64,000 nucleotides of DNA from the NCBI GenBank assembly GCA_001600815.1, contig BCKZ01000022.1:1-64000 (forward strand), in the 5' to 3' direction. Position numbers and translations under genes: made by a program. The notes under the pieces are model-generated. The model was given only the letters and a program-made list of their open reading frames with translations, did no database searches and had not been told where the DNA came from. The DNA is from Alloascoidea hylecoeti. Taxonomy: Eukaryota. Positions 1-27,099 of this stretch are shown in pieces; position 1 is the stretch's first letter; every line of letters starts with the position of its first letter.

Positions 1-247
1 GTTAATTGATGTCCTCAGATTGTATAAACACGTTGTTCTTAAACTCTTGGAAATTAAATATTAATATACTTATTATATTATATTTTTACGATACTTTCTA
101 AAATTGTGGGAATTCCTCCATATTTATTATGGAATCCCCGAAAACTATTTAGTCTATAAATAAAGTTAAACTAGATTTATTCTAATAACGATTAATATTC
201 TTTCTTTCAGTATAATTATTATATATAAGGCCTTATAATAAGGTGCT

Positions 248-592
248 TATCGATCAATTTTAGTTATATTTTTGAAATATCTATATTTATCTTCAATCTC
301 CTTTTCTTGTTTACCACTATATTTTATTTTTCTATTGGTCCATTCATTTAACTCAAAAAGATTGATTTTATTGAAATTCCTTTCCGATTTTTCTAAAGGT
401 CTAATCTTTTCTGGAGTTAAAACTTCTTATCTGAATTTTTCCCATCTTGCTTCCTCAATCTATCCTTGAGGTGCTCGGATTTCAGGCACCCCACTCTATG
501 AATTCTTCTAGGACCCTTTTTCTATGACTCTATACTCTATTCCATTGACCAGGGCCACGATTTCTTGGATATCCTGCAAAATGAATGACAAA
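248..592 (-). pseudogene. 3'-terminal fragment of a GT34 glycosyltransferase paralog
   Basis: Aligns to 9857-10201, the 3' end of the intact GT34 gene (FVIHFAGYP...RKIK). It has small indels and TGG>TAG / CAA>TAA stops. Confidence 0.9.
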
Positions 593-998
593 CTACTACT
601 AAAAAAAACTTGCTATACGAGATTGCTATAGTAGATAGAAGACTATAAAAAGAGTACGTAGATATTCCCTTTTAATAAAACTTAACGGCTAGCGCTGGTC
701 AACTACAAAATTGGTGTCGAAAGATATTTAAAATTTGAAACTTATAAATATTATTAGTCTTTTACAATAAAAGCTATAACAAAAGTACCTTTCTGATCAT
801 AAGTAATTGTACAAATTGATCTCTTAGAAAAATGGAAACGATTATAAGCTTTACGTATGCATCGAATGTAAGCTAATACAGAGTTTTATAGCTACATCGA
901 TTGCAACTTTTAAAAACGGCGAAAGAGTGAAACATTTAATGTAGTATTTGTAAGTTAACTATATAACACAATTTTAAATTTGATAATAACCTTTATGA

Positions 999-1553
999 TT
1001 AATGGGCTTTGGTTAAGTACTCATCGTTAAAAGTATAATCATATTTTTTCTCTTCTTTAGGATCAATAATATTAGCATCACTTGCTAAGCTTGATGATCT
1101 TCTATTGCGGGTACCTCGTTCATTGATACTTGGTAATTGATCTGATCCTTTAACCGATGATTTCCTCCTATTTAGCAATACATCTTCTGATTCACCGATA
1201 TCGTCGGGATTTTTTGCAACACCGATTCCAGGAATTTTTGAAGCACTTGATCGTGAATTCGGATCAAATTCATGAATGTTTTCAGGTAGCTCTTTTTGTG
1301 AAATGAAAGGTTTACCATCAAATTTATAATCAACCCCGTTTTCTTCGTCATAAGATAAAATTGAATCAACACCTGGTGAATTCGGTGAATCATTTGTACT
1401 TGGCGGCAAACTGAACCCAGCAGCGACAGATGGTCTTCTTTCGGACCTTATTGATCTAGAACGGTTTGGTTTATCGATTATAGGGACTGTGTTATCATCT
1501 GGATGAACGGAACTTGGACGACGTAGGCCATTTGAATTATTGGTTGGGGTCAT
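999..1553 (-). CDS. Hypothetical hydrophilic, probably disordered protein with several RRxS (PKA-type) motifs
   Basis: Clean ATG-to-stop ORF of 184 aa containing RRPSS, RRPSV, RRKSS and RRSSS. No recognised domain. Confidence 0.7.
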   Translation of the reverse strand: MTPTNNSNGLRRPSSVHPDDNTVPIIDKPNRSRSIRSERRPSVAAGFSLPPSTNDSPNSPGVDSILSYDEENGVDYKFDGKPFISQKELPENIHEFDPNSRSSASKIPGIGVAKNPDDIGESEDVLLNRRKSSVKGSDQLPSINERGTRNRRSSSLASDANIIDPKEEKKYDYTFNDEYLTKAH

Positions 1554-1730
1554 TTTTCTAAATCTTAAAGAAATATGAATATAAATTAGATGGATTGATT
1601 AATATTAATGTTATACCATAATTAGTAACTCGTAAACGCGTATAATTACGTAGTGGTCAATTCCGTCACGATGCATTTAATTTATCTTTCCTTATTTGAT
1701 TTTATGCATATGCAGCAGAACTGTTTTTTT

Positions 1731-2642
1731 TTAACCAAAACCAGACCACTCAATCGAAAAGCATACCATTTCTTGATCAACTTCATTATTGAGTATTTTC
1801 TCTTCATTACCTTTCAGTATCCTTTTGGCACCTATTAACCATAATTTCTTAACAGCAGTTCCTAATCTTGCTCCTCCTACAATATCTAACACTTTAATAT
1901 CTTCATCCCAACCATATCTATTCACAATCTGATGAGAATAATACCTCAATGGATCTCCAGGGTATGATATAAATTGTCCACCAAATCTTAACCCAGAAGA
2001 TGAAGAACAACCCAATGAATATAAATATTTGAATATATCATATGATTCTGCTGTTGGATGTTGCCATTTTGTTATTCTTCTTTGTTTGGCTTCAGCTGAT
2101 CCGTATTGTGATTGAAATAAATTAAAGTTTGGTAAAAACTCGGTAGTTGGCTCTATAACATATGATATAGCAGCTTGTAATGTATATTTATCTGTTTTCT
2201 TCTCTATATTTGTAGCAACTTCATTACTGGAAGTCTCATTTTCATTTTTTGTTGAATCAGTTTTCTTATCTTTCTTAACATGAATTTTCCTTTTAATTGA
2301 TTGGGTCTCCATATATTGCTTAACCTGAACATCCCAAACTTCTTGTTTCTTAGTTTTAATATATTCTAAATCTTCCTTAGATAATAAACTAGATATAGTT
2401 TCATGTAATTCAAAATCAATAATAACATAAGCAACTTTTAATTCAATAACCAATAAATATATTTCTTCTGACATTAATTCAACAGGTAATCCTAAAAAAA
2501 TGTTTTGTTGTGGTACAGATGGTAATGTACCAGTATTTGTACCATAGATATGATATTTACATCTTAATGTTTTAAGATCTGACAATGAAAATATAAATCC
2601 TCGGGTTCCAATGATATGAATTGGAATTAATACTTCATTTAT
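1731..2642 (-). pseudogene. SEN34: tRNA-splicing endonuclease subunit Sen34, probably a defective copy
   Basis: Motifs GTLPSVPQQNIFLGLPVEL, GLRFGG-F--YPGDPLR and ARLGTAVKKLW. Homology continues upstream of the ORF-track TTG start (NEVLIPIHIIGTRGFIF) with no in-frame ATG: ATA at 2640-2642, then a TAA near 2670. The catalytic-His position reads TAT (1938-1940). Confidence 0.8.
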
Positions 2643-3191
2643 TGTTATTTGATCTTCTCTTTTTAAATTTTATTTTCTATTTTGTTGGTTAACAACAATT
2701 TGAAAAACATCCGGTTAATTAAATAGATCTACAGAAGTTAATATCGACCATTTGATGATACATTCGCCCACAAAATTTATACGTATAGCCTATATGAATC
2801 AGGTAAATTGCCATTAAGGATAAATAATGAAAACCTCTCATTAATTATGACAATACGTTTTTTCATTCACAATTCATGTTAAGATCTAGGTATTTTGAAA
2901 AATAATATTTCATCTTTCTTCTTGTATGTACTATCTTTTACAATTGGATATTCATCTTTTCCTTAGGACCTATAGCTCGTTTCATTCAATATATCATCCT
3001 CCTAAATATAATTTACGTAGAAATATTAAAAGACAAGAAATCTCTATAAACTAATTAAAGTTTTTTTGGTCGTCCTCTGGAACTCAAGAAATTCAAATTG
3101 GAAATTCGGAATTGTGTGTATTCAATCAATCTAATTTTGATTTAGCGAAAAATACAATTCAGAAATATTTATTATATAGCTATGCTATTAT

Positions 3192-5174
3192 TTATTTATA
3201 AATTGGAATATTGACAAAATATTTACCAATAAAAACAAAATCCAATTTATTATCAACGATTAAAGTTTGAAGCAAATCTTTACCTGGTATTTCAATAAAT
3301 CTCCATTTTTCAATTTCAATATCATAAAGTATAAGATATTCGATACGTTCAACATCCAAAATTACATCATCAAATGGATCAATATTATCTCCAAGGTAAT
3401 ATTGAACTTTTAATGCTATATTATTATTATTCCAAAAGTATGGATAAACTCTGATTCCCTGTATTTCAAAATTAGGATATTTAATGTCTATTGAAGGTTT
3501 AAGTGTATCAATTTTAGGAGTTTCCAATATAACTTTCCAATCGTAATTATCGTAATTATTATCATTATCATACAAATTAAAGTTATAGCTTTTATCTGAT
3601 GTATCTAAAAATATTGAATTAAAAGATTCAACATTAATTTTTAAATTATCTTCAATATTGTTATCATTGTTAATCATATTTAAAAATTTTATAATTGGAA
3701 TCCATAATAATTGAAAGTTATCAACACGTTTGTAATTATGCATATTTTTCCAAATATAATTAATTTGAAATAAATTTGAACCAATCATGATAATTTGAGG
3801 AAAAAAGAGATGGGTATTGTTTGTAAAAGTGTCAAGTAGCAGTTCCATTCGAAATCTTTGTATCCCATGCCAATAGGTATTTAAATCATAATTGATTTTA
3901 TAGTTACCCAAATATTCACCATTTGTAGTTCTGAATATTAACCAGAAGTAATTATTATAACCAGCTTGTACTTCATAATAACTACATATCATTATTGGGA
4001 TTAAAGTATAAAAATCTGATACTTGGATTTTTAAAAAAGTTGGAATTGATAAAAACTCTTCAACTTCAAGATCATCAGACCTTATTTGCTTCTTTTTCAA
4101 TTGAATTTTAACCTGCCAAACCATTGTTGATTGTAATTTGTTATCCACATCACTATTTTTCTTATAACAATTTAAAATTATAGGTCTTGATGGATAATTA
4201 TAATTTGGAACATTAGTTGATATTAGATATTTTCCAGCAGTATTATCATTAATTTTTAAAAATTTCTCAGGTGTGAATAAATCTCCGTATTGCAATGCAT
4301 TAGAATTTTTTTCTCGTTGTTTTCTTTTTTTATAAAGGATGTTAAATAATATAGGATCATAAAATTTTTTATTACAATTCCAAGGTGATGGTTCTGAATA
4401 TAATTTCTCATGAAAATTTACTGGTAATCTCCAATTACTATAATTATTAACAGTTGTTTCAGATTCCATGGANATTGTATTTTCCCAATTAAATTGATTT
4501 AAAGGTTTATTAATTAATGCANAAGTTTGTGGGAATTTTGAATATAATTTATTGATAGATNTATTTGATTTTGAATCGGATTGAAAATAAACACTTGAGA
4601 CACCANTATNACTGGACCAGTCATTGATTAATGGAATTATTTGNATCACACATTCATCATCAATATCATTTTCATTTATATTATCGTCNTTCTCAATGAT
4701 AGTATTTTCAATAGATGATAAATCAAAAAGTCCAACAACTGGGTAGTTTAAAGAACTACAATCATAGTACTCTTGGTTGGTTAGAATGGGGTATTCAGTC
4801 GCCCCATANCTATCANNANAATTCNGAANAACTTTATTTTGCCATAGAGTGAATGGTACTTTTTCGTTATGGATTTCTTTAAAAATTGGTACTTCAAGTA
4901 TATCAGGATCAAATAAATTCACGATCTTAACATCTCCATTGTTTAAATTCTTGATCATTTCTTTATGTTTGTTTTTCAATGATTTGATGGATTTTCTTTG
5001 ATTTCCTTTAGTGAAAGAATCCAGTATAACAGTAGCATATTGTTTATTACTATAGTTCTGTTTATACAAGGTGAAAAGGAGTTTACATGTCTTGAAGAAT
5101 CTGAATGCATCTACTGGAGTAAGCTTCTCTGTGATAAGAATGATGGTCTCTTCAGGTAGATTTATGATTTGCAT
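3192..5174 (-). CDS. F-box protein, lineage-specific C-terminus
   Basis: N-terminal F-box signature IINLPEETIILITEKLTPVDAFRFFKTCKLL in a 660 aa ORF. Scattered N bases at about 4470-4830. Confidence 0.8.
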   Translation of the reverse strand: MQIINLPEETIILITEKLTPVDAFRFFKTCKLLFTLYKQNYSNKQYATVILDSFTKGNQRKSIKSLKNKHKEMIKNLNNGDVKIVNLFDPDILEVPIFKEIHNEKVPFTLWQNKVXXNXXDXYGATEYPILTNQEYYDCSSLNYPVVGLFDLSSIENTIIEXDDNINENDIDDECVXQIIPLINDWSSXXGVSSVYFQSDSKSNXSINKLYSKFPQTXALINKPLNQFNWENTXSMESETTVNNYSNWRLPVNFHEKLYSEPSPWNCNKKFYDPILFNILYKKRKQREKNSNALQYGDLFTPEKFLKINDNTAGKYLISTNVPNYNYPSRPIILNCYKKNSDVDNKLQSTMVWQVKIQLKKKQIRSDDLEVEEFLSIPTFLKIQVSDFYTLIPIMICSYYEVQAGYNNYFWLIFRTTNGEYLGNYKINYDLNTYWHGIQRFRMELLLDTFTNNTHLFFPQIIMIGSNLFQINYIWKNMHNYKRVDNFQLLWIPIIKFLNMINNDNNIEDNLKINVESFNSIFLDTSDKSYNFNLYDNDNNYDNYDWKVILETPKIDTLKPSIDIKYPNFEIQGIRVYPYFWNNNNIALKVQYYLGDNIDPFDDVILDVERIEYLILYDIEIEKWRFIEIPGKDLLQTLIVDNKLDFVFIGKYFVNIPIYK

Positions 5175-6739
5175 GATGGTTAGAATTCAGAATCTAGGGC
5201 CTACCTCCTTAGTATAACACTATTGACTTACTAGTATCTAGTAAAAACTCTTTACCTAACTATAGTAGTATTTATGTTGGAGTTTAGAGAGATATAAATA
5301 TTTAAAGGGAATTTATAATTGGCTTGAGTTAACATTAGTTTTTTTGACTAATAATGATACATTTATTCCACTTAATGTAGGCCATGCTGGTTACTAATTA
5401 TCGGCAGGATTATCGCCTGTATGAGTTCGTAATACTCTCCGTTAATTAATATGCAGGGGTATGGAACAACTTCTGCCAAACCAGGGCGAACTCATGAAGA
5501 ATGATCGAAATTAAGTAGATCAATTGTCAAAACCCCAATCCAATTCCTTATTCAATGACCAATCCAGTCATATTACCTTTCGATATGTGACAGAATGCAT
5601 TAAAAATGGTGTTAGACTCTTTATTATTCTTGCTTACACTAAAAAGAAGTTGAATAAGCTTGCAATTGTAACAAATCACATCAAGGGGAAACTTGATTAT
5701 CTCAGATGTCCACCACATTGCTCTCTTCTTGGAATAAGAAAAGAATGTAAAATAACTGATTGACTATAATTAGATGAATGTTCAGATGTAAACTACAAAT
5801 CTATATAAATGTCTATTTTTCTACTTTTTCTATAATACATATAAATTCAAAGAAAAATACATTTAAGGAGTCATATCATTATAGTAAAAGTTGTATAGCA
5901 ACATACTTAAATCTTATATATTTTGAAAGATATATAACAGATCACATTTATATCTTATAGGACACAAATAATGATGATAAATTAAATACTATCTATTATT
6001 ACATATTTAACGGCGTTCTTGAAGTTTAAGAATTGGTTAACAGACACCTTAACGTATACAGTTTTGGTATCGAGTTTACTATCTTATTGAACTATCAGTC
6101 TTTATGGTTATATGGAATCATTTTTAATCTGAATTTGAACATTCAAATATATCAAGCTACAAAAAGAGAGCGTGTATAGTTATTCATCTAATATTAATTA
6201 TTTGTTTTGTTTATTATCGGTACTATCAATTAGATGCAACATTAAATACCTTTAGCTTTAGTTGCGTAGTCAGTACTGGCGAATATCTAGTGTATTATGT
6301 GCTGGAATATTTAGCCTAATAATTGGCCTAAAGTAAGTGGAAACACAGCATCTTTATTTCCTTACAACCCCATGGAAGAAATCTCACACTACAAACATAA
6401 AATACAAAAAGAAAATTTTGAATAATGATTATGAATAACGATATTGAGTGGATTTTATTGGAAGTACATATGTATAATATTTTATCTTCGTTGCTGGTTT
6501 ATAATTAGTTGCTGCAACAGAACAATGGGGATCTGGGTATGCTGAGCTTAAGCACTAACTCGTCCGACTATGCCATCTACGGTATAGGTGTTTAAAATGA
6601 TGTAGAATTATTAAAGGAGATGTATGCTATATAAGAGAGTTTGTACTTGAGATTGAAAAAAATGAAGCGAGGAATTTTATTCTAAATGATAAAACAGTAT
6701 GTAAAAATTAAGTACAATCAACTAAAATTCCAGATTGTT

Positions 6740-8140
6740 TTAACCAATATCTTTTAACAATTTCACCAGTTCACCTTCTGTAAAAATATTTTCAATATCA
6801 TTTCGATCTTGACTCATTACTGAGGCTGTTGTTTTCATTGATACAAGTGCGACTTTTTTTCTAAATTCTGGTGAATTAATAATTATCTCAGCAATTGTAC
6901 TCTGTTCTCTTAATCTTAAATTTTTTTGAAATGGTGCTTCAGTATCCCAATATTGGAGAACATGTTGAGTAAACTCAGATCTTCGAAAAAAGGTCTCCCC
7001 TGTATTAATTTCGTAATCATCTTGACCAAATATGAAATCCATATTATAAATATCTTCATCTGTTATTTCTGGAATTGGTGGGTAATCTTTTGGATCCAAT
7101 CCAACTGATTCCATCAAACTTTCTGAATTATAGAACTCATTTTCTCCATCTTCAACTGGCCATGGAGCAAGGCCATATATTTGACCTACATAACTTTGTC
7201 GATCTCTAACAAATGGCTTGAAATACGATAACCTATTCTTTAAAGCCTTTGGATGCAATAAATATTCGGCAAGGTCAACTTCATAATCCATGATAATAAC
7301 ATCAATATCTAATAAATAGACCCATTCAACATCTGGGAAATCATCAAACACTCTTCTTAAAGCTTTTATTTTGCTCCAATATTTTTCTCTATCACTTGGA
7401 ATATCAATATATGTTAAATTATACCATGCATTAATGTAACCATGATAATCACAATATTCTTGTCTATTTTGATAGACTTGCTCAAACATATTTGGTTGTT
7501 TACTACCTCTGCCATCAGTTGATGATAAAATTGCAATTTTTGCACCTGATGGTTCTAATTTCCCAGTTTTGGGGTCTAAATCTTTATCGGTGAATTGAAC
7601 AGGTATCAAATTTCTTAAAAAATCTCTTAAAACAGCCCTTCTATTAATTCTATCAAATTTAAACTTTTTGGACATTTCATAATCATTACCCTGTTTACTT
7701 GCAATTTCAGCTTCTTTTTTCATTATCGGTGTACATTTCATTCTCAGTTGCAAAAAATTCTGTTGAGGAGGAAGAGAATGATTCCATTTTCCGAACATAT
7801 ACATCATTATCCCTAAACACAGAAATGCCAGAATAAATTTCACTAAAACAATAGTATAAAATACCAATCGATAAGAAAACCGATATGAATGGTGGTATTT
7901 TCCTAATGTTAGCTGTAGTTAAATTATTTTTGAAAACATTTGCAGATTTTGTATAACTATGAACATAGTTATTTGCAACTTGTAATATCATTACTGTTAT
8001 CGCGATCAATTGTAATTAATCTCACCAAGAAAGATAAACCGGAAATTGTCATTAATCTGCAGATTAATAGGATAATTGTATGATTATGATTATATAATGG
8101 TTGAAAAAGAGAAATAGTATTATTCTTTGTTAATTATTAT
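6740..8140 (-). pseudogene. 5' and central part of a GT34 paralog; internally deleted, frameshifted, 3'-truncated
   Basis: About 6789-7724 appears identical to 10221-11156. About 7725-8140 is a diverged match to 11410-11860, including upstream sequence. The N-terminal ORF (7707-8009) is out of frame with the catalytic part. Homology stops at ...IFTEGE. Confidence 0.88.
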
Positions 8141-9856
8141 CTCAAAAATTCTGTAAGACTGTTGTATTGTTTTAATATGGAAAGGTATAATATAGCGGAG
8201 TTGGTTATTTAGGTTGGGATAGGGTTAATACATAAATTGACGACCTAACAGTTATATTTGTGTCTCTACATTAGACTGGTCCATTACTAAGTTTATAGCA
8301 TAGTAGCTAATAGTATGAAGTTTTACACTATAAGAAAGATTAGATTATATAAAAGAGTAAATTATCCTATCTAAATGGGATATCAGTCAAATTACTATTC
8401 ATAAGTTATTATTATTCATTTTCATCAATTCATTTCTGCTATAGTTAATACCTAACATTTATTACCACAAGACCAATATATATTCTTACTCCTATACGCG
8501 TATAGTACGCCATATGCTCTAACGATATGATTCATCAGGTTTGTTTCATAAACAAGTGCAACAGAAACCTAATACATAATAATAATATTAAAGTTATTTA
8601 TTTAGGATGGGATTGGTTTAATCTATGAATTAATGGCATATCAGATATTTAAATTTGTGTTATATAAGTTTCCTGAGTAGTAATAGCATAAGTAAAATTA
8701 GACTATAAGATATTATAGAAAGTAGATATGGTATCCCAATATAAATAAAAATCATTAACTAATTATAACAGTTCCAAGAGGAAAATTTTAGATCTTATTT
8801 TCTTTCTATGGTTCGCGTTAGTTACAATAAGCAACTTGAAAGAGAATCAAAAAACTTTCAATAACCCTCGCGGAAAAAGTAACCACACGTACATCACCAA
8901 AATCACTTCCATATACATATTAAAGACAATAGAAGATAGATAAATGGCAAACTTGAATCCTGTCGTTTCAAATTAATTCTTGAAATTCTCTGTCAAATTA
9001 TTTGTCCCTTTTTCTTAACTGTGTAGGACTCCATACTTCCCTGCCTTACAAATATAGTTATTATGATTCTTAAATAGATGAATGCATGCATATGTATGCT
9101 GGTATATTTCCGTATGCAATATGTACAGTTGCAGTTGCATATATATATTCTCAGGAGACAAAATTGAAAGTTAGTATAATTATAAACTATGTACCGATTA
9201 TAATATAATTTAAGTGTACAAGTTTTATACGGAAGTTTGATATATTTATATTTTGCTTCAACTATCTATTCCCTATCATCACTATCGTCATTCTTTAATT
9301 CTTCAACATAGAACGTGGAGGTCCAACCTTGAGGATTGGGCACATATACCATAATAACAATGGTCACACATAAGAAAATGTCGCTTTAAGTTTGAATGTA
9401 GTCCCAAATATTTTACTATTTATATGCATAAGAGCATATGTAGCTTTTTTAAGAGCTCTAAATTTTACAAGTATAAAGCTTAAGAAACAGCGGTGTATAC
9501 GGTATACATATATGTAATGTTTTTCAGAAATTGTCATAAACACATATGGATTTACATTTGGCCTCCTTTTCTCGGGTTCACTAAAAAATTAAGTAGTATT
9601 ATAAATGGGAATTATATGAACATCATTTATAACAGATTCATTCAATTCAACACGGTAATGAACTATTCGCTTTATAGATATATGTCTTATGGATTTATTT
9701 CGTCAAATACTAATTATATTATTAAATGATAAGCTAGAACGTTCCTTATTTTTTACAAAGTACATGTTATTATTTCCAAAAGAAAAGAACGTTACAATTA
9801 TGTATGAACTCGCTGATTTTAATTTTAATTCTTTCTTTAATTTGTATGACAATTGA

Positions 9857-11716
9857 TTATCGATCAATTATATCTTTGAGATATCCATATTTATCTTCAA
9901 TCTCCTTTTCTTGTTTACCTCTATATTTTATTTTTCTATTGGTCCATTCATTTAACTCAAAAAGATTGATTTTATTGAAATTCCTTTCCGATTTTTCTAA
10001 AGGTTTAATCTGTTCTGGAGTTATGGTCTCTTCTTGTCTCATTTCTTTCCAAAATGCCGGCTCAGTCCATCCTTGAGGTGCTCGGATTTCAGGCACCCCA
10101 CTCTTTCTGAATTCTTCTGGGACCCTTTTTCTATGACTCCATAATCTATTCCATTGACCAGGGCCACGATTTCCTGGATATCCTGCAAAATGAATGATAA
10201 AATCACCTTCTGAAAAATTGTTTTCAATATCATTTCGATCTTGACTCATTACTGAGGCTGTTGTTTTCATTGATACAAGTGCGACTTTTTTTCTAAATTC
10301 TGGTGAATTAATAATTATCTCAGCAATTGTACTCTGTTCTCTTAATCTTAAATTTTTTTGAAATGGTGCTTCAGTATCCCAATATTGGAGAACATGTTGA
10401 GTAAACTCAGATCTTCGAAAAAAGGTCTCCCCTGTATTAATTTCGTAATCATCTTGACCAAATATGAAATCCATATTATAAATATCTTCATCTGTTATTT
10501 CTGGAATTGGTGGGTAATCTTTTGGATCCAATCCAACTGATTCCATCAAACTTTCTGAATTATAGAACTCATTTTCTCCATCTTCAACTGGCCATGGAGC
10601 AAGGCCATATATTTGACCTACATAACTTTGTCGATCTCTAACAAATGGCTTGAAATACGATAACCTATTCTTTAAAGCCTTTGGATGCAATAAATATTCG
10701 GCAAGGTCAACTTCATAATCCATGATAATAACATCAATATCTAATAAATAGACCCATTCAACATCTGGGAAATCATCAAACACTCTTCTTAAAGCTTTTA
10801 TTTTGCTCCAATATTTTTCTCTATCACTTGGAATATCAATATATGTTAAATTATACCATGCATTAATGTAACCATGATAATCACAATATTCTTGTCTATT
10901 TTGATAGACTTGCTCAAACATATTTGGTTGTTTACTACCTCTGCCATCAGTTGATGATAAAATTGCAATTTTTGCACCTGATGGTTCTAATTTCCCAGTT
11001 TTGGGGTCTAAATCTTTATCGGTGAATTGAACAGGTATCAAATTTCTTAAAAAATCTCTTAAAACAGCCCTTCTATTAATTCTATCAAATTTAAACTTTT
11101 TGGACATTTCATAATCATTACCCTGTTTACTTGCAATTTCAGCTTCTTTTTTCATTTTATTGATTTGATTTTCAAGAAAATGGTCTAATTGAGCTTCTTC
11201 CTCAAAAGTCATAACTAAATTATTTTTGATTTCTGCAAGTGTATCAGGAAGAATATAATCATATATTGGATCTCTGAAATATGTTGCATATAATTCTGTT
11301 ATATTTACAATTGATTCCTCTGAAATTGCATGATATTTTGATTTTGTTAACGGATGATTTAAGTCTTTAATATTTTCGACTTGCAATTGATTTAACTTCG
11401 ATTTTTTATTATCTGCATCTAATTCCATTTCAAAAGATTTTGTTGAAGAGGAAGAGTGATTTCTATAAGATGCAGGTTCAGTTCTAGATCTCGGTATACC
11501 ATTATTTCTAAAATCAGAAATGTCAGAATAAGCGTCACTAAAATAATAGGATATAACACCAATGAATAAGAAAACCAATATAAATGATGCTAAAAATAAA
11601 TAATAGGCATATGGTCTTTTCTTAGCTGTAGATAAATTATGTTTGAAAAAGTTTCCAAAATTTTTATAACTATGAACATAGTTATCTGCAATCGGTAACA
11701 TCATTACTGTTATCAC
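9857..11716 (-). CDS. GT34-family (Mnn10/Mnn11/Gma12-like) Golgi glycosyltransferase, type II membrane protein
   Basis: N-terminal transmembrane segment, NRQEYCDYHGY, WSKIKAL, WVYLLDIDVII (DxD), INTG and GDFIIHFAG. The true start is probably one of the two adjacent ATGs near 11704. Confidence 0.9.
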   Translation of the reverse strand: MITVMMLPIADNYVHSYKNFGNFFKHNLSTAKKRPYAYYLFLASFILVFLFIGVISYYFSDAYSDISDFRNNGIPRSRTEPASYRNHSSSSTKSFEMELDADNKKSKLNQLQVENIKDLNHPLTKSKYHAISEESIVNITELYATYFRDPIYDYILPDTLAEIKNNLVMTFEEEAQLDHFLENQINKMKKEAEIASKQGNDYEMSKKFKFDRINRRAVLRDFLRNLIPVQFTDKDLDPKTGKLEPSGAKIAILSSTDGRGSKQPNMFEQVYQNRQEYCDYHGYINAWYNLTYIDIPSDREKYWSKIKALRRVFDDFPDVEWVYLLDIDVIIMDYEVDLAEYLLHPKALKNRLSYFKPFVRDRQSYVGQIYGLAPWPVEDGENEFYNSESLMESVGLDPKDYPPIPEITDEDIYNMDFIFGQDDYEINTGETFFRRSEFTQHVLQYWDTEAPFQKNLRLREQSTIAEIIINSPEFRKKVALVSMKTTASVMSQDRNDIENNFSEGDFIIHFAGYPGNRGPGQWNRLWSHRKRVPEEFRKSGVPEIRAPQGWTEPAFWKEMRQEETITPEQIKPLEKSERNFNKINLFELNEWTNRKIKYRGKQEKEIEDKYGYLKDIIDR

Positions 11717-12379
11717 GATCAGTTAATGTTAATCTCACAAAGACAAATAAACCAGGAATTATCGATAGTCTGCAGATAAAAAGGATAACTGTATGATTTT
11801 GATTATATATAATGGTTGAAAAAGAAAAAAAAAAGTGTTATTCTTTGTTAATTATTATATGACCTGTCCACATAAACAAACTTTGGAAATTGGGTACATT
11901 TACCGGTATCGTATTTACGATCGTAAAAATTCGGCATAAATATGCAGGATGTAAGGTTTATAAGGCCATATTTACGTGGTTCAATAAATATTCTTGGTCT
12001 TATCAATATGAAATTATGTGATTAATCAGGCTCTAAAGGAATCTTTTAGATATGTATATTGAATCCTTATTCTAGATTAACCGGATATTCTTCAATGAGT
12101 CTTCATCAAATCTGATCAAAAATAGTGGGTCAATTAATCCATCTCTCTCTTAAACCTCTTCCTATTCACCTACTACTAACAGTTTATATAAAAAGAATGA
12201 ATTAAACTTACATGGTGGGCAACGTTACGGTGCACTGGTGCAGACGCCCTCCTAATTAAGAATATGCGAGAGTATCTCCATAAAACCTTAATAATCTTCC
12301 ACTGATCCAGACGACACCTATGCTGAAACCGGTTTTTCAATGAACCCATTGGCACCGTAGACTATACGCGTATACCAAA

Positions 12380-13350
12380 CTAATTGGTGAAAACCCAAAG
12401 TTATCTTCACGTAAAGGCCGGGTACAATTATTACAAAATAATCCGTCACTCACTCAAGATTTGGGTGTTTCGCAGAGATTCCAGATGGCCTCCAAGACAA
12501 TTCAAAGAAATTTATATAAAATGAACTTTACTTGGAAAACATGGCAAAAAAAGTAAAGGCAAATCATATAAGTATAGAAAAAAAGCGGGAAATGGACAAC
12601 TGACGTTTCAGATTACAATGAAGCACTTTTGACGGGTATCGGACCCCTACAATATCCCGTAACACGATCGTAAAATACTTCGCCGTTCTTTTATCTTCCA
12701 AAATAATACCTGAGATAAAGATCTTCTAAATCAAAGAATTTAATAAAACAAAACAAAAATTTTCGGCTTTTCATGAAGATGAGATGTTTGTGAACACTTG
12801 GGAATTGGCCAAACGTGGCTATACTGTTTTTAGATAACCAATATTTATGGTTGTCGAAGAGTATATACCGACGCATTCTAAATCAACTCTGAACAGATGT
12901 CAATATCTCATCCTTATAGAATCTTGGTGATGGATAAATTTAACATGCAAAGTTGGTTCGCATGACCGACATGGGTTATGCGACGAGTATAAAGACAGAA
13001 AATGCAACATTTTAAAATCTGGAAGGGAATTTCTGTATTACTGGGAATATCTGGAAGTCGAGGGGTTTTTGGTTCCATTGGAATTGCTATCTATTTCTCA
13101 GTTTATTTCTCAGTTTATTGTTCCTCGACTGAACTTCGGCCTTGTATTGAATATGTCAATGTCATGGATGACTCGACTCCACTCCCCCCATGATTATTGT
13201 TAAATCATAAAATGTCCAGAATGCATGCTCTAAAGAATTCAGAGATGAAAAGGGGGAAAAATGGTTCATTCCTTGCTCCCAATTGGTTATATTAGTATCT
13301 GTTTCTCCTTAACAAGCTGCAGGACATGGAAAACATTCTGGTTGAAAATA
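12380..13350 (+). mobile_element. Highly decayed IS630/Tc1-mariner-like transposase relic
   Basis: Hand translation gives HTH-like LLQNNPSLTQDL...ASKTIQRNLYKMNFTWK (12380-12555), FHEDEMFVN (about 12770, first-D-like) and VNVMDDSTP (about 13155, second-D-like). Many stops; no terminal inverted repeats found. Confidence 0.4.
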
Positions 13351-15525
13351 TGAAATTTCTAGAAGGTGAATTATCCCTTGATAAAGTCATCCACGAAAAC
13401 CTTGCTGTTAATTAGGGTCTGCGAGATGTTAAGGGGAAAAGATGAGGCTACTAAGACCCAGCTTGTAGGATGTGCGTATGTATAAGAGGAACTTTATTTA
13501 CTTAGCAGATCACAATTTGATCAGTGATCTACCTGCAAACATGATAAAGCCTTAGGCAGAACGCTTAATTATTGTTCCGACAAAATATTGTTTCAATCTC
13601 CCCGTGCATTATAGAAAAGTGAAGGAAATGATCGAAAAAATAAAATAATTTTCGAGGTGAAAAAAGCCCATTAGTACGACTACAAGACAATTTATTATAG
13701 TAAAACACCTGGAGAAGGTATAACCGGATTCTCCACTTGATGATACATACAAATACATAGTTTTATATTTTTCTGGGATACGTTAATTTATTGTATATAT
13801 AGTGATGATTACGACGGGGATAACATGACTACAGAAGATTACACTCACAGGAATAAGGAATCAGAGTGTTCGATTAATCCTAAAGTTCCACGCGTCAGGT
13901 TTGAAGAGTTCAATATAAATCCAGGATAATATAATGATCAAGAGAAGCAACAACATCAAGAAAAAAATCAAGAATCCGAAGAAGAAATGGTATCTGAAGG
14001 GGAAATGGTATCTGAAAATTTGGACGATGATTACTCAAGAAAGTCTAATACTAGTCGGTAATGGCTCGTATAGGATTCGAGACATCCTTCATTGAAGAGA
14101 TTTATGGAAGTAATCTAGGAAGCCTCATATGCACAATACTGTAAGGGTCTGCCCATTGTAAGTAAGCTGTAGCTGAATCAAACGAGTCCATATTAGTTAC
14201 TAAATCAACCATCAACATCACCGAAAAAGTATGAATACACTAGATATTTTGTATATATAAACTACTTCTCTTGATAATTTTGCTTTCAATTCAAAGTTGG
14301 AGAGTTTCTTCAATTTTACCCTGGTACCGGTATTCATCTCTACATTTCAAGAAGATTACCTCTTACCTGGACATCACCAACTACTGGATTTTCTCTACGT
14401 AACTTTTCTTTTTCTACCTATATAATTAACTGTTTCGTTTCATTTTTCCAGAACTCTGGGTGTTTAATGATGGAAATTGAACTGATTATCGCTCGCTATT
14501 AGACATCTACATATGCATGGGCCTCGACATATTGATAGTTTTTAGCCATTTGCGTCGCCATAACAGCTAGGTTTTGATAAATTTCTCTTAATTCATCTTT
14601 ATTGTAAAATCCTTTTCTAAATGTTTCATCAAGTTAAGCAAGCTGTCTTTTGGTGGTGGTGTATCCATAGAAACAAACTTCACCACTATACTCGGTTTCA
14701 AGTTTCAACTTTCAAGGGCTATATCCTAGCCATCCTTGACCCTGATATTAAATTAGAAAACGTTAAAATCCCTTGCTCCTGCATATGAGATCATTGTTGT
14801 GTATTATGTTTCCGCCAGTGGACTTAATTCTAGTGTAGAGATTTAATTTTGTTGATATATGAACTAAATTATATTATAATTAATGGAGATGTTTCCAAAT
14901 AATTAAGGAAGCATTCATTTTATATGTCTATTTACCTTTCTTCATTGAGTGTGTAAATGAAACTCTCTATGGCAGGAGAAATTGAAAACTTATGAGATAT
15001 CTGATGATGATCCTTGCAGTTGGTCTCCAAGGATGCGTGTGACTTTATTAGGTAGCGCTCATATTTCCACCACAATGCTCGAAGGTGATCCCTTAAAAAA
15101 ATTAAAGTGGAATTCAAAATTCTAAGAGGGGGACGGAACTACTTACACATAATTATCCGGAGATAACAAAAGGGATATGTGTTAGAAGGTTGGACTTAAC
15201 ACTTATAATAAATCCATAGAAGTCTAGTACTAGAAGAACGCTCAGACTACAACAATATTTACAAAATTAAATATCAAACATATATTATCAGAATTATGGG
15301 ATTAAGAAGATCTCATAATTAAAATTGATTCATATCTTATAAAATATTTAGCAAATTAGACCAATATATTAATTATATACAAGTTTTAACAATAACTAAT
15401 TGTAATTTATATAAAAGACAATTTCAAAATCCTTCAATTACTTCCACATGGTATCTGTTATTTTTTATTTCTTTCATTTCTATTTCCATTTCTACTTCTA
15501 TTTTTTATATATATCTTATAAACTA

Positions 15526-17525
15526 TTAAAGAGAAACACTTTGATTATTCACTTTAACAAGGCAATATGCAACAAAACTAACCTCACTGCCAGTTATACC
15601 ATCCAATTTCTTTGGCAAGAAAAAAGTCCTACCTATACCTTTTGATTCACCAGATATAAATGCAGTACAATAGATTGGAGTATATTTATTATTACCAAAG
15701 AGATTAACTTCACCAACTTCTTCATTAAATTTAACACCTTGGTCAATAATATAAGAACATTCTTCAATTGGAACAAGTTTTGATTCATCAAATTGATTTT
15801 TATTATTCATATTTGGTGGAATTTTATAAGTACCAGGTATATCTAAAAATGATAAATATTTTTGTAATAAAGTTTGATTATCATTATCAATAATTATATC
15901 TTCTTGAGCTAATTCTTCTGAAAATTCACCAGGTAATAATCCATCAAATCCACTTTTAATAAATTTCAATCTCATATTATCAGGTATAAAATATGAAGAA
16001 GAATATCTATACCATTCTCTACCAAGACAAATATTACCACCTTCAATATTCCATGTTTGACCATTATTATCATATTTTAAACCACCATCATTTTCTTTTG
16101 ATAAATTTTCATTAATAAATTGATAAATTTCCATTGCACCACCATAATAATAACATAAAGCAATTATTCTTGATAATGATAATAATTGAATTATTGCAAC
16201 AATTAAATAAATTGCCAAATTTTTAATAAATTTTGGTAAAAATTTAGATAATAATGATTCAATGAAAACAATCGTTAATGAAGCATTAAGACATAAACTT
16301 GGATAAATAACATAAAAAAATCGTTCTTCTTTATGAGGTTGTGGTATAAATATTAAACTCCATAAAAATAATGGTGATAAAATTAAAAATAATTGTGATG
16401 AATTAAATTTTGTAAATTTTAAGAATGATGATAAATTAATAATTGGTAATAAAATTGAAAAATAACTTAATATTGAAATTAAATTAAAATTTATAATTAA
16501 ATTTTGAAAATAATAATACCATGGTTCAATGCCAAAGATTTCTGGTCCAGTTATTGTTGAATCTTTTGGAAAAACATTATATAAGATAATATTTAATGGT
16601 ACAATAACAAATTTTTTATACATTGTTGAATCAATTGTTATTTGAATACCAAGTAATAAACCAATTATTGCTCCACTTCCTAAAATAATATAGGCTAATT
16701 GTTTTGGATATGGGAATTTGGTATAAACTGTATAAAGTAAAAACGGTAAGGCTATTGCTAAAGCAAATGGCCAACCAATTAAACCACCAATTGCAAAACT
16801 TACAATACCATAAATTGCATAATTATTAGGATTTGTGTTGTCTTCAATTTCAATTTCAAGTTCATTTTCTTGTTCATTGTCATTTTCATTCTCATTTGCT
16901 TGTCCATTGGTTCTTGCACTTTCATTTGCAATTGTATTTTTATTTTCATTATCCCTTTCTTCTTTATCAACATGATAAGAAATATATCTTATAAAATAAC
17001 TTAAACCAAGCATTCCCATATACATTGCAAAAGAACTTGGTAAATAACTAACTGAAGCATGAAACATACCAGGACTAACAATCATAAAAATTAAAAACCA
17101 ATTCCCAATTGATTTTGAGATTGTATCACAAATAGTTTCATATAATGTAAATTCAGAAAACGATGATAATAAAGCAAACCATAATCGTAAACCATAGAAA
17201 AAAATCAATTTATTATTATCCATAATTAAATCTTTTATAATTGTTATAATATAAGAATGAATAAAAATATAAAACCATGATCTAATTGCATAATCAGGTG
17301 AATATTCCCATGTTTGTAATCCAAACCCATTTGTTATAAAATGAGTTGGTTCCCAATAATTAAAAACTAGGATAAAAAAGAGTATCATAATTAGTTTTGC
17401 ACAAATAGCAATGCCTAGAGATTAGTTTGATGATATTTACCTTCATCGCAGTCATTGATGATACAGAATATAGCACATACTGTTCTAACACCGAGAATAA
17501 TTAGAAAAGGTGTTAAATTCCCCAT
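15526..17525 (-). CDS. ALG9: Dol-P-Man alpha-1,2-mannosyltransferase Alg9; exons 17525-17441 and 17366-15526
   Basis: Splicing the GTAAAT...CTAG intron (17440-17367) gives INDCDEVFNYWEP. Also GLQTWEYSPDYAIRSW, QPHKEERF and GREWYRY. Confidence 0.96.
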
Positions 17526-18109
17526 ATTTGTGCTTTTATATGTCAAAACTTAAGTAAGAAGAGAATTAAAGAGGTGTATTCGGAAGTAAATGGAACCACG
17601 TGCACAATAACCACCATCAAATAACCTGATACGGATTATCTTCTAAATTTATACAAAAAGATGTAGATATTTTGCTATAACTTCAAGCATGGAGTTATTC
17701 TGCTAATTTATTACCTACAAGTTATAAATGGTATATTAATTGCAATTGCAAGCTATCTATAATCATAAGAATCATTATAATTATACTACTAGGTTCACTA
17801 CCCATTCTAAAGACGACTCAATCACTGGAGTTGAAACTTATCATAAAACTTATTTACAAGTCTTGTGTATTAATTGAACCTCTTAATAAATTTAAAAGAT
17901 AAATATATTTAAATATATAAATTCTTCGATTAATAATGCATTATATTTGATTTTTTATGAATAATATTCCTCATATCATATTTCTCATCCCTTTAATAAT
18001 CTATAATCATAGATAAGGATTCCAATCACAATTCCATTCTTTGTTTTTTTTGTGCCATCATATATGATTTGATATACCAACTCTTTGATTCATTGATTCA
18101 TTAATATAT

Positions 18110-18558
18110 TTATTTAGGTGGATTAACAATAGATAAAGCAGGTTGTCTAAATCTACCATCATTATAAACACTTTTACCAGCTTCCCAACCAGGAACATCT
18201 TTCATGATTTCCCTTTCTCTTTCTAAATCTGCAAAATATCGTCGAACACTATCTCTATCTGCTTCTGCTTGTAAAAGTGGGAAAAGATAAAATCTTGACC
18301 ATATTTTTTCTCTTTTTAATTCACTATATTTAAGAAATATGGTTAGTTATCAAACTATCATTTAATATGTGTAAGATGTACATAAAAAATAAGAACTTAC
18401 CGTCTTTCTCTAATAGATTTCATCATTATATACCATCCATAACCACAAAATCCAGCTAGACCAAGTAAGAAAATACTAGGTCTAAAACCTCTAGATGGCA
18501 AATTTCTCTTCCATTGAATAGGTTCATAACCTTGTAGAGGTGGTAAATCTTGAGGCAT
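18110..18558 (-). CDS. NDUFA13: Complex I accessory subunit NDUFA13/GRIM-19 (NB6M); exons 18558-18401 and 18323-18110
   Basis: Not in the ORF track. Spliced translation MPQDLPPLQGYEPIQWKRNLPSRGFRP...PLLQAEADRD...MKDVPGWEAGKSVYNDGRFRQP. Intron GTAAGT...ACTAAC...TAG. Confidence 0.93.
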
Positions 18559-18864
18559 TGTTTTGATAAATACTGTTTGAAACTAAAGAAGTTCAATATG
18601 GAGGTTGGAAAAGTACAAATGTTCAGCCAATCAAAGCAGACATTTTTACAACCACTTTTCAATGGTCACGTGTGGTGTGTGTCAGTGATAAGTAATGAAA
18701 GTACACGTGATAAGAAACAATATATAATTAACTATATATTTATCAATTTCAACTCAATTCATACTTATAATAATCCACGAAATATGTATATCATCCTAAT
18801 TATAAATTATATTAATTATATATCATAATAGTAGTATTTAGAAAAGTATTCACATTTAAACAGT

Positions 18865-19568
18865 TTAAGCGGAAATTCCAACGACACCGCAAGCAAGTCT
18901 TAAACCAGCATTACCAGTCTGTAAAGAAAGTTCATGACCACCTTTTCCCAAATCATCAGGAGCACCATGGACAACAACAGTTCTTCCTAAAATAGAATTT
19001 TCACCTAATAAAGAAATCAATCTATCGGTTTTAGAACCTTTGGCAACACCGGAAGCATCAGTTGTAACATTACCTAAATCACCAACATGACGGACTTCAT
19101 CTTCTGGAGCACCGTGGGTTTGTTTGAAAGGGTTAAAATGAGGACCAGCAGAGGTACATCCATTGGTATTGTCACCAAATTCATGAATATGGAATCCACG
19201 TGAAGCATTGGCTTCATTGCCTTCAATGTTCCATGCAACTGTGGTTGGTGCAGAGGCTGATTCTTGTTCGAATGTAACGGTACCTTTAACAGTAGAATCT
19301 CCACGGAGGACGGCGACTAAAGAGGCAAAGGAAAAAAATTAGTTATTTGAACTCGCTCAAAACTCCAAAAAAGAGATATGTAAAGGGGCAATTGATTGTA
19401 AATTGAATGAATCTTGAATCACGGAAAATTGATGATTTGTAATTATAGATCTCAAATGCCGATCTGACCACCACCACTAAAGCCGTTATTTGGCTTGTTC
19501 CTTTTACAATCGCCCCATACAGATAAAAAAGAGTTAAGTTCATATTGTTACTTACCAGCTTTGACCAT
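18865..19568 (-). CDS. SOD1: Cu/Zn superoxide dismutase; exons 19568-19556 and 19316-18865
   Basis: Not in the ORF track. [12 protein letters not shown]...[23 protein letters not shown]...RHVGDLGN...[14 protein letters not shown]. Intron GTAAGT...TAG. Confidence 0.98.
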
Positions 19569-19888
19569 TTTGTAATTGATTGAAGTGTAATTGAAAGTTA
19601 AAAATGAGAATAAATTCTTAAAGAAAGAGAAAAAAGAAATAAAAGATGTGACCTGTGGAGGCCATTAAATAGTTCTAGATGTGGATTGCTCGGTGATCGT
19701 TACTAATAGTGATCACATTTACGCTGATGAAGAGCTCTTGTGCGAATAATTGAGAATATGCAATGTGCGGGTAATAAAAATATGTAATGCAAACAGAAAT
19801 AATAGACAAGATATATGATTTGAAAACAACATCAGATAAGCAAGATTTGAAAACGAGTGGAGTCATAATATTGGTTGTTAATATAGAT

Positions 19889-20089
19889 TTATTGAGTTTG
19901 AGTCTGTCGATCAGTCTTTGGTCCATTTTGTTGATCTTTATCTTTGGTGGCAACTTGATCTCCTTCTGAATCTTCCTCATTATCACTAGGCCCTATGAAT
20001 AAAGCTAAAGCCGATGTAACTATGATACCAGTAAAAGTATACATCAACAGCTTTGCCGGAGCTCTCATTATTTGGTCAAGTTTAGTCAT
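19889..20089 (-). CDS. Small (66 aa) single-transmembrane hypothetical protein
   Basis: MTKLDQIMRAPAKLLMYTFTGIIVTSALALFIG followed by an acidic tail. The ATG at 20089 follows a pyrimidine-rich leader. No family recognised. Confidence 0.5.
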   Translation of the reverse strand: MTKLDQIMRAPAKLLMYTFTGIIVTSALALFIGPSDNEEDSEGDQVATKDKDQQNGPKTDRQTQTQ

Positions 20090-20327
20090 AGCTAACAGGA
20101 CAAAGAAGAAGGAAAAGAAGAAAAGAGTTAAAAGTTTCGGGATGTTGAAAGTATTTAAAGCAAAGTAAAGTAATATTTGCTCATAACTCCATCTGTCCTC
20201 TTTTGGAATAATCTGCTCGCAGTAATACACCCACACACCCCTGTCATTGGACATCACGTGTGGGACGATCTCTTAGCGATTTTTATCTTGATAATCTAAG
20301 AATTTAAAAATAATTAAACACCCAAAT

Positions 20328-21410
20328 ATGAAATTTCCGCTTGTGTTTATAACTTTTATCACAACAGCGCTCTTTTGGGGTTCAACTATTGCCAATACTG
20401 ATGTTGTTGATATTATCGAGGTAAATCAAAGGATTTTACCTGATTTCTTGAATAATAGTGAAAAATACACTATATTGAATTTTTATTCAGATCAATGTCA
20501 ATATTGTGCAAAATTAGAACCAGTGTATCACCAATTATTGGAACTTTTCGGAAATTCAAAAGAAATACAAATAGCTCGAATTAATATGTTAAAGAATAAA
20601 AAAGTTCAACGACAACATGAAATAAAATCATTTCCTACAATTAAAGTATGTTCATATATTTAAATTTTACTTTTAATTTTTATTTGATTTTCTAATGATT
20701 TAAAATAGTTATTTAACAAAAATGGTAAATTAATTTCAACATTTAATAATTTCCGAACACTTGATAATATTCAAAAATTCATTACAGATAATACAAATAT
20801 TAAACCATTAACACTTAAATCAAAAATTCCAATAATAAATGATTCAAATTCAAAGAAAATATTTGAAAAAGATACAGTTCTTATATTTTTAGGACCATGG
20901 ATGAATGATTTTACATCACAAGCAATGACTGTATTTGATGATTTAGCACAACATTTTTATTCCAACAAAGAAAATAATGGATATAAGAAAAATATTCCAT
21001 TTTTTGCAAAAGTTAATGGAAGATCAGAAGAATCAACTGGATTAACTTCAAAATATAGAGTTGATCATTTACCTTATATTGTGTATATTAGAAAAGATAA
21101 TCCTGATAGACCTATTGCTTATCATACAAATACTCGTTTTGAAGGTGGATATGGAGATGGTGGACAAATTGCAATGGGTAGATTAGCTATTATTCAAAAT
21201 GCCCATATTGAACTTGGTTTAGATAATTTAATTGAATTTGTTGAAACTGCAAGACGTCATCCAGAAGAATTAAAAGATCAAATTATTGATTTAACACAAA
21301 AGTTTGATATGATATATGATATGGATGATGATGATGAGGCTTATGGTAATGAAGATGATTATTTTGGAGATGAAGATGATACTTATTTAGATTATTATGG
21401 AAATTTATAA
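20328..21410 (+). CDS. Secretory-pathway PDI-like thioredoxin-domain protein; exons 20328-20645 and 20709-21410
   Basis: Signal peptide, FYSDQCQYCAKLEP (CxxC) and IKSFPTIK. The GTATGT...CTAAT...TAG intron joins the two track ORFs in frame. Confidence 0.85.
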
Positions 21411-22062
21411 ACAAATTATAAAATGTATTTAGCAATAGATTTAATAGAAAAAAGTTAACAAATATTATACTGTTTTAAAGTAACTGTAGCTATAGGAGAA
21501 GCGTATATATATAAAAAGGATTAATATACATGTTAATATTTTAAAAACTTGGACATAATCACTACTCAGACCTTATATACCTTATACTTACTCCAAACCC
21601 TGTAGACATCATAATTTAAAAGAATCATCAGTTAATTAATATATTATGTGTATGACTTGGATTTAACGAATACAAATATTTTTCTCCATAACACTAAAAA
21701 AATCATGTCTTGGAATGAAAAATAATATAATTCAGTTAATCAACTTAACTTCAAGCCATCTTATATACGGTATATTATTATCATTACCTGGTTGCTATTA
21801 TCTAGGTGATGGCTTTAGAACCGAATCTATCTTGTATTTACTGCTATTGAGTGGTTAGGCACCAAGATAGTTGGAACAAAGCTTGGCTTTCTTCACTAGA
21901 AGGGAGACAAGCGAGCTTTTATATTCGCCTGAATACTATATAACTTATAATTACGAGCATTACATAATCATCTATGAAACATGGTCAGGATCTGTTGGTA
22001 CCAGATCAGACCAAACATGTAATAGTTGTTGTATCCTATGCTATAATTAGTAGATTCTAAAG

Positions 22063-22079
22063 CAGGTTATGAGCCCTGC
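22063..22079 (+). mobile_element. Ty5-type primer-binding site preceded by CA; remnant of an LTR retrotransposon 5' end
   Basis: CA|GGTTATGAGCCCTGC is complementary to the initiator tRNA-Met anticodon arm; the same motif occurs at 34055-34068. The LTR start cannot be defined. Confidence 0.65.
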
Positions 22080-22568
22080 ACCATCTTCGAAAGAAGCTGG
22101 GAATACTTTAACACCACGTCACAAGCTGTTTACAAACTGATATTTACGTCTTCTATTCCCCAATTACTGAAAGAAACTGAAACATTGTCTAGCGATAGTA
22201 GCAGTCTTACCCTAGTGATTAAGTAATTTTATCCATATATTACCCTAACAGATATTTGTCACGTGGTGAAATGTATTAGTAAGACAACTGAATGAAAAAA
22301 TATGATTATTATCGGTTATATTAAAGGTTATATGATTATGATTTTATATTAATTGTAATTGAAAAGATGCTTCTTTTATTTACAAGCGTAGCCTTCTGCT
22401 CTTTTACTCTATTTTATGTATTAATTCTTAAGCTTGCAATTGTGTTTTATTTTTGAAAGGTGTAAGGTGTATCATTATCTTTGTCAAGAAGATCTTGTAG
22501 AATTATAATCATAGGATATCCAATTTCAACTCCATTTTTTTCTCCTTAACTTTTTACACATATAATTA

Positions 22569-25500: not shown

Positions 25501-25945
25501 TTCAACTGTTGGAAGTGCAGGTGAAGTAAGTGTTGCTAAATTGGATCGTTTCCGTGATTGGAGACTTGAAATCAGAGTGAAATTCAGAGATGAATCTGAA
25601 TTAAGACAATTAGATGGTTCATTCCAATCTGGTGGAGAAAGAGCAGTATCAACAGCATTTTATATGCTTGCTTTACAAACATTAACTAAATCTCCATTTA
25701 GAGTTGTTGATGAAATTAATCAAGGTATGGATCCTAGAAACGAACGAATTGTTCATAGACATATGGTTAAGATTGGTTGTGAAGAATCAGCATGTCAATA
25801 CTTTTTAATTACACCAAAACTTTTATCAAATCTTTATTATCATAAAACAATGAGAGTACATTTTATTATGGCAGGTGCATTTGTTCCTGATCCATCGAAA
25901 GAACGAAAATACTTAACATTTGGACAAGTCAGACGTTATACCTAA
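22569..25945 (+). CDS. SMC5: Smc5 (SMC5/6 complex); exons 22569-22689 and 22764-25945
   Basis: LKNFVTY, GPNGTGKS, DNLCQFLPQDRV, QSGGERAVST and FRVVDEINQGMD. The GTAAGT...ACTAAT...TAG intron preserves frame. Confidence 0.97.
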
Positions 25946-26745
25946 TTATAATGATTGTTAAATACTTGTATTAGTAGTGTTACATAATATGTTATTTCTT
26001 CATATTCTAATCTTATAAGGGTGGTAGCACGGATGCGACAACAATGCGCCAATCGACAACCCTCTCGAAATTATCTGCCCTGTTTTCTTTTTCATCACAC
26101 AACCACCAACAATGGCAAAATCCAAAAGACACCTCAGAGCACGTGCATCAAGAGACAAAGAAGCAAGATACTGAAAACTGTGGGAAGAAGAAGTCATCCC
26201 GAGCTGAGCATATCCATTGAATGAGTTTTTACATAGACCGGGTTATCCCATTTAAATCTCAAATATTGTATTAATTATAGACAATCCGTATCAACAGCTA
26301 TGAGAGTTCCCAAGATCGACAGATTCCGAAGAGAATCGGCTAACTGATGTGCGACTTTAATATGCAAAAATGGGGATGACAATCGATAAAACACTGCTCT
26401 ATTGTTTCATGAATTAGTTGATTGACCGGCGGTATTCACCACCATCAAGAAGTCAACAAAGAACGCCATTACTCGCTAGTATGGTTGTTTTAATTGGGTG
26501 GATCTCTTTCTGAAGAGGAATCTGATGATTTCTATCAAAAAAGAAAAGGGATTAGACACATCGGTCTTTTAGTAGTGATGCTTACAAGTTCAACAAAAAG
26601 ATCCTCTATGGACCAGAATGACAGCCCCGGCCGAAAAAAAACAATTTAGACTAGGGATGATCTATGTAAGGAGCAAAGGATCGGCATCTTTTAATATCAT
26701 CTAGGGGTCTGGAGAGACTGGAATTTGACCGTATAATACGACTAT

Positions 26746-26938: not shown

Positions 26939-27099
26939 ACTATCATAATTAATTAATACATATTCATTTATTTCATATACGTATAAATAATACATGTCAA
27001 TAATCAAAAACTACACAAATTCATTAAATAGCAAAATTATCACAAGTCAAGTAGACAAAAATATAATAACAATAATAAATTATTTAATCATCATCTCAA

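Follow-up and report, generated by a model that had tools for sequence, protein, structure and literature searches.

A multi-gene segment apparently copied from a second locus into a tandem GT34 gene copy in the yeast Alloascoidea hylecoeti

A 6.2-kb segment carrying several genes has very probably been copied from contig C18 of the Alloascoidea hylecoeti genome and pasted into one of two tandem copies of a GT34 gene, and the event was probably a duplicative transposition by DNA break repair, in which the copied C18 segment was captured by end joining. The stretch analysed here, referred to as the window, comprises 64,000 nucleotides at the start of contig C22 (BCKZ01000022.1) of a low-GC fungal assembly of 24.8 Mb. 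An earlier note on this DNA proposed that a multi-gene segment had been inserted into a tandem gene copy, and our analysis supports that proposal. The rearrangement is of a known kind and represents neither a new class of element nor a new mobile element. It does provide a natural record, resolved to the base pair, of transposon-free gene movement in a non-model yeast, in which one can read the donor and target, the two junctions and what later became of each passenger. It suggests that breaks can capture a copied segment of 6 kb with several genes and leave end-joining-like junctions, the segment being far larger than the captures seen in the laboratory, and it documents one route by which an orphan F-box-like family has spread. 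The features of the region are collected in Table 1.

Table 1. Features of the split GT34 gene, its intact neighbour and the inserted block (window coordinates)
Feature	Position	Strand	Remarks
3' half of GT34 copy B, from the F-V-I-H-F-A-G motif	244..592	-	2-nt frameshift and stops; 8.5% divergent from copy A
Left junction	591..592		2-nt microhomology common to target and donor; three A bases, two shared
Inserted block	593..6770		collinear copy of C18:103218-108661
Truncated solo-LTR-like dispersed repeat	593..790	+	first ~40 nt missing in window
184-aa ORF	999..1553	-	intact in both copies; dN/dS 0.21 (7 N, 9 S; Fisher p 0.003)
SEN34 copy, apparently decaying	1731..2660	-	ATG lost, catalytic His to Tyr, dN/dS 0.91
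Decayed CorA-family 3' end and terminator region	2778..3095	-	75% to C18:145652-145989
F-box-like gene, orphan dispersed family	3192..5174	-	open frame
Stretch kept in window, apparently deleted from donor later	5349..6056		708 nt; 2-nt TA at ends
Dispersed repeat, second family	5965..6170
Dispersed repeat, third family	6373..6560		12 matches, including window and donor
Importin-13-like gene tail, last 20 codons and stop	6708..6770	-	carried along as block end
Right junction	6771..6771		1-nt microhomology (one shared T)
5' half of GT34 copy B	6771..8010	-	core 6789-7724 equals copy A; 5' end ~15% divergent
Intact GT34 gene, MNN10/GMA12 family, copy A	9857..11722	-	621-codon open frame

Self-BLAST and pairwise alignment confirmed that a GT34 paralog, copy B, is split at one point with its halves in order. 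On the same strand, positions 244-592 align with 9854-10201 of the intact copy A at 88.7% identity, 6771-7724 with 10203-11156 at 99.7%, and 7798-8140 with 11495-11858 at 77.3%. The breakpoints had been placed within about 1-7 nt of each other, and just one nucleotide of the intact gene (10202) is left uncovered between the two halves; two independent truncations agreeing to within 2 nt would have a rough chance of 5/1866, or 0.003. Pfam places the GT34 domain (PF05637) in both copies. The break lies directly 5' of the I-H-F-A-G motif, the His of which we take to bind metal. The DxD/H motif named in PMC12892413 gives indirect support for this role. No nucleotide differs between the two copies over the 936 nt of the copy B core, and three differ in the 18 nt adjoining the insertion, while the unconverted parts of copy B are 8.5% and 14.9% divergent from copy A. 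The 5' end of copy B also contains a frameshifting deletion in the stem region. Since both halves are frameshifted, copy B is a pseudogene, which may have died before the insertion or through it. The GT34 family occupies at least 7 loci in this genome, including two convergent genes at C7:819325-825395, each 82% similar to copy A, and a pseudogene at C24:38490-40054 that ends 13 nt from a copy of the solo-LTR-like repeat also found in the block.

The block was searched against the whole assembly, a comparison that the earlier note had suggested, giving 50 matches, with 40 of 62 candidates scored, and revealing an end-to-end second copy at C18. Among the matches listed, only the window and C18 (2 of the 50) cover the block as a unit, and the remainder are F-box-like paralogs and short repeats. 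The two block copies are 94% identical over 4.8 kb and 86% over 0.7 kb; they differ in every segment, by up to ~7%, and the non-coding parts of the window block are 1.7-6.6% different from the donor. SEN34 and the 184-aa ORF are each present in exactly two copies in the genome, one in the window and one on C18. On C18 the right end of the block falls inside an unbroken importin-13-like ORF of 1041 codons (C18:100156-103281), and the left end falls inside a whole dispersed repeat, the start of which is present at C18 and absent from the window. A search for homologues in which the importin tail might prove conserved found none. Because the importin ORF and the repeat run through the block ends, the changes in the window SEN34 are derived and the target is split, C18 appears to be the source and the block ends appear to be arbitrary cuts, not the termini of an element. 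The window as donor is ruled out by the importin ORF on C18, the whole repeat there and the derived window SEN34. The C18 donor locus likewise excludes the scenario, raised in the note, that the passenger genes lay ancestrally between two independently truncated GT34 copies.

Two features of structure bear on the history of the donor. The 708-nt stretch seems to have been lost by the donor and not gained by the window, because a dispersed repeat that is complete in the window is interrupted at the donor break. We considered this stretch as a TA-targeting transposon or a fold-back copy and rejected both, as it has no inverted ends and its alignment score of 73 lies within that of shuffles (maximum 107). 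The CorA-derived piece is found in both block copies between the F-box-like gene and SEN34, directly upstream of SEN34, and has the opposite orientation to the CorA gene, which lies 39 kb away on C18. Judged from its presence in both copies, it would be a rearrangement older than the block insertion and already in place in the donor, arising either by duplication or by an inversion that duplicated a breakpoint. No relic of SEN34 was found between RFA1 and CorA on C18.

An Asp codon stands at the position of the break in all four GT34 loci with a readable motif, indicating that 1 nt of target was lost; if the lost target codon was Glu, then 0 nt were lost and there is 2-nt homology at both junctions. 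In agreement with the earlier note, neither a target-site duplication nor an inverted repeat was found at the block ends. No terminal inverted repeats are present (0-9 of 8-30 terminal bases complementary), the two ends of the block show no likeness to each other, no terminal hairpin exceeds shuffles (z -0.35 to 0.61), and there are no direct repeats at the block flanks. Divergence of about 5% could have blurred features of the junctions.

The structure was compared over 4830-12500, a range limited by N bases, with contigs of four sequencing runs (X1-X4; three samples from three studies, one of which may be the source of the assembly). One X2 contig follows the GT34 gene up to the equivalent of 592 and then enters the window version of the block start, and it thus represents the left junction, separately assembled. 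The donor form, in which 5348 is joined to 6057, is present in all four runs, as are contigs inside the 708 nt specific to the window, and both block forms occur in three samples (X1, X2/X3 and X4). In X1, X2 and X4 there are contigs that run between copy A and the 5' end of copy B, and in the same runs the copy-A contigs end at 10250, 30 nt beyond the last difference between A and B, which is expected if copy B reaches the right junction. The right junction is in this way supported indirectly as real; it is absent among the contig pieces listed, beyond which there are a further 277 pieces and 129 loose ends. The NCBI protein P0001 carries the SEN34 changes of the window type, with one residue different. 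Since the neighbours ALG9, SOD1 and SMC5 have no second close copy, the window is not a hybrid haplotype; a hybrid or allelic haplotype was ruled out, and 14500-27000 has short repeat matches only. None of 80 metagenome SEN34 loci (43 of at least 8 kb) shares any of 14 neighbour proteins, a comparison that is uninformative at this distance as all of them come from distant fungi.

These contigs also bear on whether C18 sequence was simply mis-joined into a collapsed GT34 repeat during assembly, which we regard as very unlikely. It is true that the split-gene structure begins 244 nt from the contig start, that the GT34 core is 100% identical, and that N bases at the same codons of both F-box-like copies point to local collapse. 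However, the block copies differ by 3-7% in every segment, three samples contain the window-type as well as the donor-type form, a separate contig crosses the left junction, and the window-type SEN34 corresponds to P0001 but for that single residue.

The earlier note left the choice between break-repair capture, integration of a circular DNA and a cargo-carrying element. Capture by break repair fits best; the circle lacks the permutation expected of it, and the element is unsupported. We propose that a tandem duplication of the GT34 gene, suggested by the 8-15% divergence of the unconverted parts, came first, and that the spare copy would then have broken immediately ahead of the I-H-F-A-G motif and the 6.2-kb copy of C18 been joined in with 1-2 nt of microhomology and the loss of ~1 nt, the donor keeping its genes. 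The copy, its direction and the junctions are evident, and the pathway would be end joining of the Ku/ligase type, acting on a copied fragment that was free. The event may have survived because it was a redundant gene that was hit. Decay of the pasted SEN34 and the 708-nt loss in the donor would have come later, as would gene conversion from copy A, which appears to have overwritten the core of copy B to within 18 nt of the insertion. The divergent ends, the unchanged core and the differences next to the insertion suggest the order of tandem duplication, insertion, and conversion stopping at the insertion.

In Saccharomyces cerevisiae, insertions made by NHEJ show 0-4 nt of junction microhomology (PMC11724301), and those templated insertions, as described there, resemble the block in a retained distant donor, microhomology in this range at both ends and little loss of target. 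The block junctions also resemble those of natural region B insertions in wine yeasts, which have 2-3 nt of homology and 1-2 nt lost or gained (PMC3053389). Unlike the laboratory insertions, the block is natural, apparently old, found in several samples, and at 6.2 kb contains whole genes. It also lies in a genome that has Dna2 and two Ku genes, and a loss of either function as the cause was ruled out. Natural transposed segments of S. cerevisiae with junctions inside exons (PMC2682701) likewise place a multi-gene segment at a second site. The laboratory captures described in PMC11724301 have medians of 88 and 187 bp and for the most part stay below 200 bp, and because 6.2 kb is far above these, two template switches at microhomology must be weighed, in which repair synthesis (MMIR/MMBIR or SDSA-like) would have moved from the GT34 end to C18 and back with no free fragment. 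This would account for the block size and the undamaged donor. It would also suit the left donor end, which lies within a repeat, in low-complexity sequence made up of short triplet repeats and a run of A. Target and donor moreover have a word of 5 nt in common at a distance of 8 nt from the right junction. Switching at microhomology or microsatellites does generate segmental duplications in yeast (PMC2518615), which, like the block, can put a multi-gene segment at a second site with junctions in ORFs or at LTRs. The duplications described there hold dozens of genes and have LTR-LTR or 8-9 nt junctions, whereas the block is a small interstitial insertion with junction homology of 1-2 nt, and LTR-like sequence is confined to one of the donor ends and missing from the target. 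As the target is also almost untouched and no templated bits are seen at the junctions, we consider such a double switch unlikely.

Little probability attaches to a circle excised from C18 and integrated at the GT34 break. There is a precedent in the 17-kb region B of wine yeasts, a multi-gene segment that is described as inserting with 2-3 nt of homology and a loss or gain of 0-2 nt, once into a gene (PMC3053389). Region B, however, is foreign, multi-copy and circularly permuted, while the block is native, two-copy and collinear with its donor from end to end. Integration of a circle usually permutes the segment, and here there is a single extra copy only.

We also think it very unlikely that the block was moved by an unrecognised cargo-carrying element of the Helitron, Starship or Pack type. 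Some features do recall such elements: there is no target duplication, as when Helitrons move host genes (PMC4289320), the target is almost intact, an A|T insertion of the Helitron kind can be read at the target (microhomology makes the position of the cut ambiguous), the minus strand of one end has GTAG, which differs from CTRR by one base, both ends have repeats close by, and members of the F-box-like family are scattered over 14 loci. Against this, one end of the block interrupts a host ORF and the other a repeat, and the hallmarks of Helitrons and Starships given in PMC4289320 and PMC11162782, namely a 5' TC, a 3' CTRR with a hairpin, RepHel, a captain and direct repeats, are all absent from the block. 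Its ends begin with CT or AC on either strand, the 3' candidates are GTAG or CCAG/CAGT, and no subterminal hairpin exceeds shuffles. As the note had stated, the block holds no obvious transposase, and none was found by Pfam; nor does it contain an ORF for a DUF3435 captain. Genome searches for RepHel (PF14214) and DUF3435 (PF11917) each gave 0 matches in weak searches whose controls were also silent, and Starship recombinases are reported absent from Saccharomycotina (PMC11162782). Pack-type transposons are disfavoured by the lack of terminal inverted repeats and of a target duplication. An LTR retrotransposon with cargo fares no better, as the block has one truncated LTR-like repeat, dissimilar ends and no 4-5 bp duplication. 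Finally, what the other F-box-like copies have in common is limited to the ORF plus 60-200 nt of flank, and the copies of the left repeat that were examined stand alone between ordinary genes.

The window contains other repeated sequences. At 14278-14855 and 26054-26762 lie two relics of a dispersed repeat that also occurs on C6, C8, C15 and C27; its ORF is decayed and has no Pfam match, and it may resemble pogo-type transposases. As the two relics overlap in element coordinates they are two copies and not one element split by an inversion. At 26760-34030 lies what is left of a broken retrotransposon of the Ty1/copia type, recognised by RVT_2 and SH3 matches, and a fragment resembling a kinase (27114-27635) is situated within or next to it.

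The block was said to carry a 184-aa ORF, SEN34 and an F-box gene. All three ORFs are present and SEN34 is matched by PF01974; the F-box label is weak. The block further contains the importin tail, the decayed CorA 3' end and three dispersed repeats, one of them solo-LTR-like and truncated. No tRNA genes were found, and there were no Rfam matches in 1-12500. The 184-aa ORF has no family and no homologue in Pfam and homology searches. The nearest named relatives of SEN34 are in yeasts such as Sugiyamaella and Trichomonascus. The His lost from the window copy is kept in 10 of 11 other aligned sequences, the exception being the window-type P0001, and by alignment and its spacing from the catalytic Tyr it corresponds to H255 of human TSEN34, for which the catalytic triad is given in PMC10539383. 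The changes at conserved columns thus appear, from the alignment, to be derived in the window copy. The left repeat is ~215-255 bp when whole, with TG...CA ends and 21 matches in the genome, and two of the copies with both ends readable have a 4-bp target duplication; we take it to be a solo LTR. It was rejected as the terminus of a cargo element, being cut internally in the block and standing alone between ordinary genes in the copies examined.

A genome search with the F-box-like gene gave 26 matches, spread over 14 loci, eight of them with long open frames, and the family includes many relics. The window and C18 copies have no Pfam match, F-box matches in three paralogs are sub-threshold (E 0.01-0.1), and F-box clusters in the Atlas at 0.87 for this passenger are a lead only. 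Relatives are few: of 1.84 billion representatives, 15 were hit, and 12 of these hits are short pieces with 44-76% identity. The 12 N bases at 4473-4829 and those of the C18 copy occupy identical codons; the assembler may have written one consensus into both copies, so the region would be nearly identical, possibly by conversion. Older pairs in the family have dN/dS of 0.32-0.54. For the youngest pair, the window and C18 copies, we obtained by simple counting in this AT-rich genome, with the middle part collapsed, a ratio of 1.95 for the whole gene (50 N, 6 S; p 0.16) and, for a C-terminal partition chosen post hoc, of 3.1 (41 N, 3 S; p 0.045). The changes fall on both copies (17 and 16, with 13 ambiguous). 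This weak excess of amino-acid change in the C-terminal part is a lead and not a result. A possible role for the F-box-like gene would be that of the driver, as a core duplicon or conflict gene of which new copies are favoured, dragging along flanking host DNA (SEN34 and, earlier, the CorA end) and diversifying in its C-terminal, presumably substrate-binding, part; this seems distinctly unlikely to us. As they have no poly-A and no boundary in common, the F-box-like copies were rejected as retrocopies or as elements with common ends. Inverted duplications were observed at C2:1736737-1738376, C19:459988-460462 and C11:84766-86588 (98%, 87% and 98%, respectively); those on C2 and C19 are within 1-2 kb of F-box-like copies, and the one on C2 contains a 193-codon ORF twice, in a head-to-head or tail-to-tail arrangement.
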